Numbered from the stretch's first letter, positions 40,637-47,183 are shown. The stretch: 64,000 nucleotides of DNA from Actinomycetota bacterium (GCA_028697145.1 JAQVFR010000003.1:76834-140833); one strand, 5' to 3'. Notes: a model not told the origin generated them from the sequence alone. A program made the numbers and translations.

Positions 40637-40765
40637 CTGCTTGACCCTCGCCAGCCCGGTGAACTACCAGGTCGGTCGCAGCGAGGCTTTGCGAGCGAGA
40701 CCGTTACCTGGAGGCCCCGGGCTGGACGAAAGGCAGGGAGAGACCGTTACCCTGAGGCTCGGGCC
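40637..40765 (+). repeat. Copy A of a ~125-bp intergenic direct repeat; contains two internal ~27-bp sub-repeats GAGACCGTTACC(C)TG(G)AGGC.C.GGGC
   Basis: Near-identical to 47060..47183, including CTGCTTGACC.TCGCCAGCCC… GGTCGCAGCGAGGCTTTGCGAGCGAGACCGTTACCTGGAGGCCCCGGGCT…GACCGTTACCCTGAGGCTCGGGCC. Confidence 0.8.
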
Positions 40766-40773
40766 TTAAATAT

Positions 40774-41198
40774 CTACACGCGCTCTATGACCATGGCGAT
40801 GCCCTGGCCCCCTCCGATGCACAGGGAGGCCAGCCCGAGCTTCGCCTCCCTCTCCTTCATCGCCGTGAGCAGGGTGATCACGATGCGGGCGCCGGTGCAT
40901 CCCACCGGGTGATGGCCTGCATGGCCGAGCCGCAGCCGCGGATGACGGCATTGGCGGCGGCCTCCTGGGGCACCCCGGCCTTGAGGGCGCCCAGCCTGGC
41001 CGCGGTGCACAGCTCGTCGAAGCGCACTGCCACCTGCCCCATGATCACGTCGTCGACCACGTCCGGCGATATGCCCGCGCGCCTGATGGCCTCGGCGATG
41101 ACGATGCGCGCAAGTTCCCCCGTGGGGACGTCCTTGAGGCTGCCGCCGAACTCGCCGATGGCCGTGCGGCAACCGCTGACGATGAAAACCTCGTTCAA
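40774..41198 (-). pseudogene. Decayed thiolase paralog: the N-terminal ~95 aa fused out of frame to the C-terminal ~45 aa, with the ~250-aa middle deleted
   Basis: ORF 40878..41198 ([24 protein letters not shown]…) parallels the first ~100 aa of the full thiolase at 41225..42400. The frame-shifted ORF 40774..41172 ends …[15 protein letters not shown]…[16 protein letters not shown], which is the thiolase C-terminus. Confidence 0.75.
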
Positions 41199-41224
41199 CC
41201 CTCCTCCTTTTCAGCTCCGGTCGT

Positions 41225-44234: not shown

Positions 44235-45911
44235 TCAGCCCATGCCCATGCGCAGGGTGGCCTCCAGGTTCATCGGGGGCAGGTCATCGGGGTCGATGAT
44301 CACGTCCACCACCGCCGGACCCGGCGCCGCGAGCGCCTCCCCCAGGACCTCGCCGATGTCCTCCACCCGCTCCAGCCTGAAACCCGCCGCGCCGAAGGAA
44401 CGCGCCAGGGCGGCGAAATCGGGATTGCCGTGGCAGGTTCCCAGTATCCTCCCGCCGCACTGTACGCGCTGCCTGATGTTCAGCACCCTGTACATGTTAT
44501 CGTTCATTACCAGCACGCGCACCCCGATCTTCTCTCGGCATGCCGTCTCCAGGTCCTGCAGGGTCATCATGAAATCGCCGTCGCCAAGGATGGCCACCAC
44601 CTCTGCCCCGGGGCGTACGAGTTTCGCGGCAAGAGCGGCGGGAAAGCCGAAGCCCATGGCGCCGAAGTTGACCGCCGAGAGGAAGCTCAGGGGCTCCCGG
44701 CAGGGCAGGAAATCCATGGGATAGAGCAGATGGGTGCCCGCGCCCACGGTGATGATATGTCCCCCGGACAGCAGGCGGCCCAACTCGTGCACCACCCGCC
44801 CCGGGGAGAGCGGCACCTTGTCCGAGGCGATGGACGCCTCGATCTGGCTTTCCCATTCCCGCCTCTTCGGCTCCAGGAGACCCCACCATTTCCCGCGCGA
44901 AGGGGGGCGGTAATCCCTCACGGCCCCCAACGCTTCCACGAGGAAGTCCCTCACGTCGGCCTCCACCATATAGCTGGCGCGGAAGCGGCTCGTCAGCATG
45001 GCCTCCAGGTCTATATTCACCAGGACCACGTCGCCGTTGATCGGCAGCGTATACTCGTAGCTGGTCATGTCCGAGATGGTGCATCCCAGGCCCAGCACCA
45101 CGTCCGCCTCCATGAGGGCGGTGTCCGCGACCGTGTTACCGCCCCCGAAACCCGCCCTGCCCAGGCAGAGGGGGTGGTCCTCGGGGATGGTGCCGCGGCC
45201 GTTGCCGGTGGTTATCACCGGCACGTGCAGTGCCTCGGCGAAACGCACCAGGAGGTCCGAGCTTCGCGAGTAGGCCACCCCTCCTCCCGAGAGCAGCAGG
45301 GGCCTTTCCGCCTCCTTCACCGTACCCAGGGCGCGCCACACGTCCTCCACGTGCAGGGGCGGCCGGAATTCGGCAGAGAGCCTGAAATCAGGAGGTGGGC
45401 CGTGCAGCTCCTCACCCCATACGTCCTCGGGAACCTCGATGAGCACGGGCCCGCGCGCCCCCGATACCGCCAGGGTGTAGGCCTTTGAGAAGACGGCGGC
45501 CGCCCGCCCGGCGTCCTCCAGCCGGAAGACCCCCTTGCACAGCGGGGCGAAGATGCCCACATGATCGGCCTCAAGCATGCCGTCGGATCCCCTGAGCTTC
45601 CTTTTCACGGCGCCGCTGATGACGACCATGGGGCTGCAGTCCTTGTAGGCGTTGCCCGCAGAGATGAGGGCGTTCAGGGTGCCCGGCCCGGAGTGGGTTA
45701 GTGCGACCCCGGGCACGCCGGTAAGGCGGCCCTCGGCATCCGCCATGCTGGCGGCCACCTGCTCGTGGCGGCAGGATATATAGCGAATCTCCTCCTGGTG
45801 ATCGTAGAGGGCATCGACGAAGGAGATATTGGAGGTGCCGATGACGCCGTATATCCTCTCCGCTCCCATGGCCTTTATCCCCTCGATAAGCACCTGCGCG
45901 CAGTTCATCAT
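44235..45911 (-). CDS. Thiamine-pyrophosphate enzyme of the acetolactate-synthase large-subunit family
   Basis: 558 aa. N-terminal Pyr domain, central domain, and C-terminal PP domain with a GDG(X)n motif (…AILGDGDFMMT…). Confidence 0.8.
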   Translation of the reverse strand: MMNCAQVLIEGIKAMGAERIYGVIGTSNISFVDALYDHQEEIRYISCRHEQVAASMADAEGRLTGVPGVALTHSGPGTLNALISAGNAYKDCSPMVVISGAVKRKLRGSDGMLEADHVGIFAPLCKGVFRLEDAGRAAAVFSKAYTLAVSGARGPVLIEVPEDVWGEELHGPPPDFRLSAEFRPPLHVEDVWRALGTVKEAERPLLLSGGGVAYSRSSDLLVRFAEALHVPVITTGNGRGTIPEDHPLCLGRAGFGGGNTVADTALMEADVVLGLGCTISDMTSYEYTLPINGDVVLVNIDLEAMLTSRFRASYMVEADVRDFLVEALGAVRDYRPPSRGKWWGLLEPKRREWESQIEASIASDKVPLSPGRVVHELGRLLSGGHIITVGAGTHLLYPMDFLPCREPLSFLSAVNFGAMGFGFPAALAAKLVRPGAEVVAILGDGDFMMTLQDLETACREKIGVRVLVMNDNMYRVLNIRQRVQCGGRILGTCHGNPDFAALARSFGAAGFRLERVEDIGEVLGEALAAPGPAVVDVIIDPDDLPPMNLEATLRMGMG

Positions 45912-46891
45912 CTCACCCCGTTTACCACGTATAGCGGCTTCTCTCCGGACAGCACCCGGTTCACGTTCTCCATGGTTATGGTAAGCATCCTGACCCTGCT
46001 CTCGTTGGTCCCGCCCGATACGTGGGGGGAGAGGATGACTTTGTCCGAGGCCAGCAGGGGGTTGTAGGGGTCGACGGGCTCACGCGTGAAGACGTCTATG
46101 CCGGCGCCCGCCAGGCGGCCTTCTCCCAGGGCCTCGGCCAATGCCGCTTCGTCCACCACCTCCCCGCGTGCCAGGTTGAGCAGGTGTGCGTCCGGCTTCA
46201 TCATGGCCAGGCGCTCGCGGTCGATGAGCCGGGTGGTCTCGGGCGTCAGGGGCACGTGCAGGGTGGCTATGTCCGCCGCCGGCAGGAGTTCCTCCAGGTC
46301 GAGACGCTCCGCCTCCAGTTCCTCCTCGAGCTCCGCGGGCAGGGCGACCGTGTCGCTGTAAACGATGCGGCACCCGAAGGCCTTGGCCCTTTTCGCCACC
46401 TCCCTGCCGATATTGCCCATGCCGATTATGCCCAGGGTCTTGCCGTGCAGCTCGGACAGGCCCAGGGTGAAGATTTCCTGCTGCGCCCACTCCCCCGCCG
46501 CGGTCTTGTCGTGGAAATAAAGCGCCCTCTTGAGCAGGCACAGCATGAACATGATGGCCTGTTCGGCCACCCCTATGGCGTTGGCCGCGCCCACGTTGGC
46601 CACCGGGATGCCCGCAAGCCGGGTAGCCTCGAGGTCGATGTGCTGATAACCGATGCTGGGTTGCTGGATGAGCATGCAGCCCCTCGCCGCCTCGGCGACG
46701 GTAGCGTCTATGGGGATGCGAAACGTGAAATCGCCGATGATCACACCCGCCCCCCTCACGGCATCGACGAGGCCCGGCCCCGGATCCCCCGCGTACGTCT
46801 CTATGAAGACATCGTCGCTTCCCGCCGCGGCGGCAAACATGCCTTGGGCAACCTCCTGCGGCAGCGGTGCGAGCACCACTATCTTCACCAT
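45908..46891 (-). CDS. D-isomer-specific 2-hydroxyacid dehydrogenase (PGDH-like), NAD-binding
   Basis: GIIGMGNIGREVA Rossmann motif and catalytic …LARGEVVDE…SPHVSG… Start at the ATG giving MVKIVVLAPL; the track ORF extends upstream from a GTG. Confidence 0.8.
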   Translation of the reverse strand: MVKIVVLAPLPQEVAQGMFAAAAGSDDVFIETYAGDPGPGLVDAVRGAGVIIGDFTFRIPIDATVAEAARGCMLIQQPSIGYQHIDLEATRLAGIPVANVGAANAIGVAEQAIMFMLCLLKRALYFHDKTAAGEWAQQEIFTLGLSELHGKTLGIIGMGNIGREVAKRAKAFGCRIVYSDTVALPAELEEELEAERLDLEELLPAADIATLHVPLTPETTRLIDRERLAMMKPDAHLLNLARGEVVDEAALAEALGEGRLAGAGIDVFTREPVDPYNPLLASDKVILSPHVSGGTNESRVRMLTITMENVNRVLSGEKPLYVVNGVR

Positions 46892-47059
46892 CTCGACCTC
46901 CCTCTGTTCCCGCGACTGCGCATACGACCAGCCACTCTTATAATATCCTGTCGCCCCTGTTTGAAAACAATCCCCATGCCGCTCGGCGGCGCTCGCCTCA
47001 ACGGGCCCGCGAGCCATAGGCGACCTGTTTACGAGCGAGACTGCCGTCTGCGCTCCCAC

Positions 47060-47183
47060 CTGCTTGACCGTCGCCAGCCCTGGGAACTCCTCGGTCGCAG
47101 CGAGGCTTTGCGAGCGAGACCGTTACCTGGAGGCCCCGGGCTATTTCGGAAGGAGGCGGGACCGTTACCCTGAGGCTCGGGCC
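47060..47183 (+). repeat. Copy B of the ~125-bp direct repeat (see 40637..40765)
   Basis: Same sequence and internal sub-repeats as copy A. It lies in the divergent region between the 2-hydroxyacid DH gene (minus) and the acyl-CoA DH gene (plus). Confidence 0.8.

Follow-up and report, generated by a model that had tools for sequence, protein, structure and literature searches.

Among the short palindromic repeats of bacterial intergenic DNA are the repetitive extragenic palindromes (REPs) and the bacterial interspersed mosaic elements (BIMEs): the unit is an imperfect palindrome of 20-40 bp that makes its own small stem-loop with stems of 8-9 bp and carries an unpaired GTAG or CGTC tag at one end (PMC3733652). 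REPs lie mainly between unidirectional or convergent open reading frames (ORFs); the 3' end of the upstream ORF is close by, and the distance to the next one varies (PMC3733652). Two inverted REP units that form a hairpin constitute a REPIN (PMC3337134, PMC3116915). In actinobacteria, TRIT ("Tuberculosis Rho-independent terminator") is reported to be restricted to Mycobacterium, to lie at about -8 with respect to the stop codon and to be for the most part bidirectional (PMC3152330). Here, we describe a repeat that is reminiscent of these systems and occurs twice in a 64,000-nucleotide (nt) stretch from an Actinomycetota bacterium (GCA_028697145.1 JAQVFR010000003.1:76834-140833; the whole stretch is called the window, and plain coordinates are counted from its first letter). 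Its two copies, A (40620-40765) and B (47053-47183), both on the plus strand, bracket a 6.3-kb block of metabolic genes; they are very probably members of a dispersed, non-coding, hairpin-forming intergenic family, akin to REPs, REPINs and miniature inverted-repeat transposable elements (MITEs), in uncultured Actinomycetota near 'Ca. Geothermincolales'. The family has multiple copies, is confined to intergenic DNA, is gained and lost at orthologous sites, and keeps its arms paired through compensatory changes. It seems to be undescribed: no earlier description was found, and three characteristic 16-17-mers of the arms have no occurrence in the searchable literature.

As the initial annotation reported, A and B are nearly identical direct repeats in the same orientation; they span ~130 bp, and each contains two GACCGTTACC..GAGGC units. 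Similarity is uneven along their length: a 52-nt block is 100% identical (40672-40723 = 47091-47142), identity is ~80% in the left part, where copy B carries a 4-bp deletion, and 93-100% in the second sub-repeat, and the spacer that separates the two sub-repeats has diverged. The sub-repeat GAGACCGTTACCNNGAGGC has exactly four true sites in the window (chance expectation 0.16), spaced 43 and 42 nt apart within the copies, in line with the ~43 bp first given. What had been missed is a long imperfect hairpin, in which sub-repeat 1 serves as the right arm and the left arm lies ~40 nt upstream; alignment with a foreign copy (L118; loci and contigs outside the window carry L numbers) also makes both copies slightly longer than originally drawn. 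Copy A folds at ~-65 kcal/mol as the plus strand and ~-63 kcal/mol as the minus strand (z ~-3.5); copy B, whose left arm has the deletion, folds no better than shuffled sequence (z +0.92 and +0.09).

If the two copies flank a gene block, do they belong to it? A genome scan with a pattern that matched all four sub-repeats returned, among the matches listed, chance hits in coding DNA of many phyla and clusters in a few uncultured Actinomycetota metagenome-assembled genomes (MAGs). Clusters of the element are present in at least eight MAGs, often at contig ends (QZKE01 'SURF_21', CAYPZH01, CAYWXM01, CAYHAT01, CAZQFX01, CAZGWK01, CAZEAU01 and CAKZMC01), where the whole architecture recurs at unrelated loci; the bracketing of the 6.3-kb block is coincidental. 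A metagenome scan with the exact apical loop of the window added six members, on five contigs of a single assembly (MTKY01), which resemble the window within the element only, their loci being otherwise unrelated. The L118 copy is nearly the whole composite, in which the lead-in of copy A (GGCGGGCGAGCCT.CC.TCTGCTTGACC) and the same loop are combined with the spacer of copy B (GGGCTATTTCGGAAG) and the second unit; it is 87.7% identical to copy A over 146 nt and 89.6% identical to copy B over 134 nt. A covariance model (R1), built from 11 short-form members, gives copies A and B 96.5 and 71.4 bits, respectively, and the rest of the window at most 17 bits; it identifies 52 members in 438 kb of relatives' loci, a count that comes from a biased sample because most of these loci were fetched for containing the motif. 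Of the three explanations that the initial annotation had left open (paired operator sites, a repetitive extragenic element, or scars of a duplication delimiting a mobile block), the second thus gains the support of dozens of further copies, which related MAGs and one metagenome carry at unrelated loci.

Assembly breaks point the same way. An identical acyl-CoA dehydrogenase (ACAD) protein, encoded next to copy B in the window, is present on anaerobic-digester contigs (the 'Soeholt' JGI metagenome and several Logan runs) and in MAG GCA_028718105.1. At least seven Logan contigs begin at 47123 and one SPAdes contig at 47098, both inside copy B. Logan uses k = 31, and SPAdes usually finishes at k = 55; the first k-mers of both contig types would end at 47152. 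The assembly graph would thus branch at 47153, ten bases beyond the divergence of A and B, which predicts a further copy closer to copy B than copy A is. L118 first departs from copy B at the base that matches 47153, the predicted branch point. The break points suggest that samples of this organism contain one further copy or more. As for the host, homologues of its ACAD come from sources named 'Actinobacteria bacterium', 'Actinomycetota bacterium' and, at 76% identity, 'Candidatus Geothermincolales bacterium', from which we infer an uncultured actinomycete near 'Ca. Geothermincolales'.

Members share a modular architecture: from left to right, a lead-in (CGTCTGC, then GCTGCCACC or TTGACCGACGCC), a left arm (AGCCCGGGGAACTACCAGGTCGGTC), an apical hairpin, a right arm (GACCGTTACCTGGAGGCCCCGGGC) and a tail (CGGAAAAGCAC); the two arms make up the core. 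Many members also have outer units, one on the left (GCCCGAGAACCGGGGGTCGGTC...) and one on the right (GAGCGAGGACCGTTACCCCCAGGCTCGGGC), which by eye are complementary, suggesting a nested second hairpin. The apical hairpin is short (two sequence types, one of them that of the window), long (~62 nt, with a conserved GGTTTCTTCTT) or extra-long. The extra-long variant, ~110 nt with CGACGAAGCA..CCCGATTGAGTACCAC.TCGG.GATGGAAATC, is common to the copy A site of a close relative (L129:3225-3400) and to CAYHAT01 members (L033, L026, L075); thus, the apical part behaves as an exchangeable cassette between conserved arms. At a contig end of SURF_21 (L059:1-200), a 30-nt right-arm unit, GGAAGGACCGTTACCTGGAGGCCCCGGGCA, forms a head-to-tail tandem array with no hairpin.

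The arms are preserved as partners. RNAalifold folds the 24 long and the 11 short members into one and the same three-part stem, which has a conserved unpaired internal loop and a TT bulge. A compensatory A-U↔G-C exchange affects one pair in 6 of the 24 long and 5 of the 11 short members, and others are G-C↔A-U or C-G↔A-U/G-C. In an alignment of 52 members, which was itself fitted to the model, 93.1% of cells pair, compared with 84.6% in shuffles and 30-50% with slid partners, and double-sided changes occupy 106 cells where 41 are expected; none of 500 shuffles reached the observed values. Different pairing variants are found together within one MAG, which argues for selection on pairing of a single strand (DNA or RNA) and not for recognition of a fixed duplex.

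The family also keeps a characteristic place among genes, which were called by a simple caller based on GC content at third codon positions that reproduces the known genes of the window. All 35 members with paired arms fall between genes. In 36 of 41 cases, the gene next to the right arm is encoded on the opposite strand, and the distance to its stop codon is typically 10-75 nt (range +4 to +75); on the other flank, the next gene usually lies 200-500 nt from the element. Co-directional gene pairs are split 21:1 (p ~1e-5): 21 unidirectional pairs have the element in one orientation and 1 in the other, while 9 pairs are convergent and 4 divergent. Taken together, orientation and stop-codon distances make the element, in the sense of the neighbouring gene, a 3'-flank hairpin, followed on that strand by GGUGGCAGCGCAGACG-type sequence. 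Copy A follows this rule, its right end being 9 nt from the stop codon (40774-40776) of a minus-strand thiolase remnant; copy B is in the minority class between divergent genes, as are L063, L085, L035 and L111. The neighbouring genes encode 197 Pfam families, according to a bulk scan of 148 neighbouring proteins (43 further neighbours were left out).

Orthologous loci reveal how the two sites were filled. The order cobS-cobT-cobU, thiolase-(DUF6485)-SAM_HAT-YjbQ-thiamine pyrophosphate (TPP) enzyme-2-hydroxyacid dehydrogenase (2-HADH), ACAD is kept in L120, L121, L129 and L122 and partly in L123; L121 is without the 2-HADH gene, and a response-regulator gene stands beside ACAD in L121, L122 and L123. 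ACAD is 94% identical to that of the window in L128, 90% in L120, 89% in L121 and L129, 86% in L122 and 77% in L123, and because relatives with 86-90% identical ACAD have the same gene order, the block is ancestral. The ACAD promoter, TGATATAAT.TC.CCGCAT, is conserved in L128, L120, L121, L129, L122 and L123, and the element is absent from all six; its absence despite the conserved promoter marks copy B as a recent gain in the lineage of the window. The copy A site has a different history: it holds a long-form member in L120 and an extra-long one in L129, in each of which the right arm directly adjoins the stop codon of the thiolase gene. L121 and L122 have no element there, and the flank AACGGAAGCGG is common to L121 and the window. 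Other members occupy other positions of the same syntenic region: two in tandem downstream of SAM_HAT (L122:4361-4577), an 82-bit member right after the ACAD stop codon (L129:11151-11234) and an outer-pair member after ACAD (L120:11144-11304).

How would such an element spread? Presumably as a non-autonomous mobile element in the manner of REPINs or MITEs, either through a single-stranded hairpin intermediate or by recombination from copy to copy, which would fit the exchangeable apical parts at one orthologous site. Once in place, copy A, read as the minus strand, would form a 3'-flank hairpin (~-63 kcal/mol) of the transcription unit that runs from the 2-HADH gene to the thiolase gene; there, it could plausibly act as a barrier or stabiliser at the RNA 3' end, insulating the thiolase unit from the promoter of the cob riboswitch. 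Copy B is a recent, partly damaged and decaying insertion between divergent promoters, probably with no function of its own.

Several observations weigh against this account. Mobility is deduced from presence and absence only: no recurrent transposase was found among the 148 scanned neighbouring proteins, and filled and empty copy A sites show no recognisable target-site duplication, although their flanks have diverged and could hide a short one. The orientation rule cannot be told apart from an insertion bias linked to replication, since in these short (8-kb) loci 74% of the genes that are not adjacent to the element are co-oriented as well (Fisher p = 0.08). The pairing statistics come from an alignment fitted to the model, and in the outer helix a register shift between palindromic CCCGGGG/CCCGAG variants accounts for some of the CG↔GC swaps. 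Wobble pairs in the 52-sequence alignment are balanced, 11 G.U to 11 C.A, and give no sign that the RNA of either strand is the selected form; an early count of 14:6 (24 sequences) had favoured the window's plus strand, an assignment that was dropped when the count became 11:11. Neither copy has a U-tract or terminator by a scan that does find the riboswitch terminator nearby. Finally, the window holds only these two copies, with no others by blastn-short or by the covariance model with filters off (a 17-bit hit at 37414-37492 was rejected as a member, having no arm motifs), and none is present in the 7.7 kb past its right end. Many further copies, which the initial annotation had named as the mark of a REP-like element, thus exist at the level of the family, in relatives, and not in the DNA of this genome that was searched (the window plus ~8 kb).

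If pairing is maintained and most members follow stop codons, could the family be, first and foremost, a functional structured RNA rather than selfish DNA? A sequence-conserved 3'-UTR (untranslated region) hairpin, TRIT-like and kept at gene ends by selection, would be bound by a dedicated factor acting in termination, 3'-end processing or mRNA stabilisation. In its favour are the positions shortly after stop codons, with one orientation prevailing (21:1 between co-directional genes); arm sequences that stay highly conserved across several species while their pairing covaries; the conserved, unpaired internal loop and TT bulge; and the precedent of TRIT, a conserved palindromic motif at actinobacterial gene ends (PMC3152330). 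However, the same genes in close relatives do without the element, and several members (copy B and those in L063, L085, L035 and L111) lie between divergent promoters with no gene reading into them. In copy B the arm is damaged and the fold is no better than that of shuffled sequences, the wobble pairs carry no strand signal, U-tracts are missing, and no Rfam family matches the element in a gathering-threshold scan of the window or in permissive E-value scans of the region and three relatives' loci. An RNA module of this kind is an unlikely alternative. A more elaborate version, which we regard as improbable, sees a domesticated module found throughout the lineage of Geothermincolales-like Actinomycetota: a dedicated protein would recognise the asymmetric stem by its fixed loop and TT bulge, the apical cassette would be free to swap, and copies set in one orientation after stop codons would define transcript 3' ends without a U-tract. 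Were this true, the module would be a second independent TRIT-like system or the first REPIN-RAYT-type partnership (RAYT, REP-associated tyrosine transposase) in the phylum. A 3'-end role, if real, would bear on how transcripts end without U-tracts in high-GC Actinomycetota.

The dispersed family, with its arms paired and its sites variably filled, also has to be set against the regulatory reading raised at the outset, in which the copies are paired operator or activator sites of one transcription factor that controls the cob operon, the 2-HADH...thiolase operon and ACAD, with GACCGTTACC as the recognition sequence. The geometry at copy B is suggestive, with two direct units ~43 nt (about four helical turns) apart directly before the extended -10 of ACAD, and beta-oxidation-type neighbours do recur among the 148 proteins (ACAD 4, thiolase 3, AMP-binding 3, TetR 5). 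But six relatives keep the ACAD promoter without the element; copy A is downstream of an operon, at a site that is empty in L121 and L122; and most members are at the 3' ends of genes, past stop codons and not at promoters, among neighbours too varied to make a coherent regulon. Moreover, compensatory changes preserve pairing, not a fixed recognition sequence. Shared operators are very unlikely. Hardly credible at all is the last option, that the copies are scars (att-like sites or duplication junctions) bounding a recently acquired or excisable block: direct repeats with a perfectly identical 52-nt core do stand on both sides, with a rearranged thiolase remnant adjoining copy A, and 52 nt of identity could support rare RecA-dependent deletion, but the block, far from being absent in relatives, keeps its gene order there, down in part to the relative with 77% identical ACAD, it encodes no integrase, recombinase or transposase, copy B is missing where the block is present, the copy A site holds other subtypes, the same composite recurs at unrelated loci, and the two copies differ in history, A being an old occupied site and B a recent gain. 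Since the repeats mark neither a mobile metabolic island nor a regulon, the 6.3-kb block is best annotated as ordinary ancestral chromosome.

In copy A, a lead-in precedes the left arm CAGCCCGGTGAACTACCAGGTCGGTC (40652-40677), which pairs with the right arm, sub-repeat 1, GACCGTTACCTGGAGGCCCCGGGC (40699-40722), across a short apical hairpin, GCAGCGAGGCTTTGCGAGCGA (40678-40698), that is the same in copy B and the six MTKY01 members; past a spacer lies a second right-type unit, sub-repeat 2, GACCGTTACCCTGAGGCTCGGGCC (40742-40765). Sub-repeat 2 belongs to a different pairing subtype, being an outer right-arm unit without an intact left partner; in L071 and L117 its copy A sequence is a genuine right arm. 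In copy B, between the divergent 2-HADH and ACAD promoters, the left arm CAGCCCTGGGAACTCC----TCGGTC (47075-47096) has lost 4 nt, which weakens the hairpin; the right arm (sub-repeat 1) is at 47118-47141, and the second unit (sub-repeat 2) at 47160-47183 stops 22 nt short of the TG in the extended -10 of ACAD. By analogy with other outer left units, a reading of the bases alone picks out a possible degenerate outer left unit of copy B at ~47003-47025 on the plus strand, where GGCCCG(CG)AGCC could pair with GGCTCGGGCC of sub-repeat 2. A promoter of the element's own for a left-to-right RNA was rejected by eye: TTGACC is confined to the lead-in of a single subtype, and no usable -10 accompanies it.

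The genes around the copies are as first annotated. To the left of copy A, outside the element, a cobalamin riboswitch on the minus strand (40397-40574; 100.1 bits in the Rfam scan) heads cobU-cobT-cobS, its canonical terminator being at 40355-40331 (minus strand; terminator scan). To the right, copy A is in the 3' flank of the thiolase remnant, which has an internal deletion (40774-41204, minus strand). The minus-strand block comprises, in order of transcription, genes for 2-hydroxyacid dehydrogenase, a TPP enzyme, YjbQ/UPF0047, SAM hydroxide adenosyltransferase, thiolase and the thiolase remnant; only metabolic proteins are encoded within its 6.3 kb. The ACAD gene, with its extended -10 (TGATATAAT, 47206-47214) kept in relatives that have no element, is on the plus strand, divergent from the 2-HADH gene.

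Some features of this neighbourhood deserve a record of their own. The thiolase remnant represents a second copy of the intact thiolase gene beside it: the C-terminal piece (40773-40911) matches 41224-41362 of that neighbour at 78% identity, and the N-terminal piece (40910-41204) matches 42112-42406 at 75%; a single thiolase gene stands beside cobU in L120, L121, L122 and L129. At least 20 Logan contigs with cobU start ~84 nt upstream of it (~40311; L130, L131), within the riboswitch expression platform and not at copy A, which suggests that this stretch is also repeated elsewhere, for example in another cobalamin riboswitch, or is otherwise hard to assemble. No contig joining cobU to ACAD, the product expected of a deletion between A and B, was seen; the cobU contigs stop 84 nt upstream of cobU, short of the site. 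The ACAD promoter region, (T)GATATAAT followed by.TC.CCGCAT (47204-47230), is kept down to 77% ACAD identity while the surrounding intergenic DNA is unalignable, and the conserved CCGCAT that directly follows the -10 may serve as a start-site motif or in regulation. At the other end of ACAD, the LGT gene overlaps its 3' end (48401-48426) in the window; relatives have 1-3 extra genes there (peptidase M24, DUF6141 and others), often with a family member directly after the ACAD stop codon, suggesting a deletion at 48401-48426 in the window's lineage.

A second, unrelated dispersed hairpin repeat, GGGGTCAGGTCTTG...CAAGACCTGACCCC (~90 nt, ~-47 kcal/mol), is present in this organism and its relatives. 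It occupies 7014-7103 in the window and, elsewhere, L124:1-85, 210-265 and 2624-2709; L117:9111-9196; L119:4940-5027 and 8210-8298; L057:1905-1942; and L120 at ~9745-9815. A MAG contig begins inside one copy, and Logan contigs break at another, upstream of an Ldh gene. Three stretches of a SURF_21 locus (L073:1015-1148, 1570-1645 and 2456-2538) give weak matches to unrelated microRNA hairpin models and are probably further palindromic repeats. Like this second hairpin family, the element of copies A and B fragments short-read assemblies of digester and subsurface Actinomycetota. It is also a ready marker for strain typing and for tracking gain and loss between close relatives, and a test case for whether REPIN-like elements, and the orientation rule, exist outside Proteobacteria.

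Where, then, does the family belong? Among the nearest known kinds are REPINs: two inverted arm units surround a spacer and make a long hairpin, here with 93% pairing and compensatory changes. Like REPINs and the REP/BIME repeats, the family is multi-copy and extragenic and includes solitary units and mosaic or tandem clusters, and its position (intergenic, past stop codons, mostly between unidirectional or convergent genes) is the published REP pattern (PMC3733652). Unlike a REP, a single arm does not pair with itself, the hairpin forming between left and right arms that are 38-130 nt apart. Sequences that recall the REP tags occur, with CGTCTGC ~15-20 nt outside the left arm in many members and CTAC, the complement of GTAG, in the internal loop, but neither is at the foot of a REP-type stem. 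At least four exchangeable apical types, from 21 to ~110 nt, set the family apart from REPs and REPINs, as does its host: these are Proteobacterial elements, with Actinobacteria going without a mention in the REP survey, and here the host is actinomycetotal. In the REPIN-RAYT partnership, the genome also has a RAYT gene, for a Y1/HUH IS200-like transposase, with the repeats on its flanks; here, tblastn with IS200 TnpA and E. coli RAYT queries gave no RAYT/IS200 match in 502 kb of element-bearing loci.

With MITEs, the family shares its size (~100-250 bp), lack of coding capacity, inverted-repeat arms, intergenic location, presence or absence between close relatives and tendency to break short-read assemblies. 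ERIC and Correia elements are small dispersed palindromic repeats with the same general features. The family departs from MITEs, whose inverted repeats are terminal and bordered by a target-site duplication, in that its conserved sequence reaches beyond both paired arms, into the lead-in CGTCTGC... on one side and the tail on the other; diverged flanks show no target-site duplication, and no parent insertion sequence with matching ends was found in the fetched loci. A strong gene-orientation rule is, to our knowledge, not typical of MITEs either.

Among elements at gene ends, the hairpin differs from a canonical intrinsic terminator in having no U-tract. TRIT offers a parallel, as a sequence-conserved palindromic motif with many copies at actinobacterial gene ends that does not look like a usual terminator. 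The family is nonetheless set apart from TRIT by description, being located 4-75 nt after the stop codon, larger, nested, orientation-biased, in a different host and without an Rfam match, and the relation would be one of analogy, not membership. Although its defining features place it firmly in none of REP/BIME, REPIN, MITE and TRIT, the family that copies A and B represent is of a known kind: a REP/REPIN/MITE-like element.

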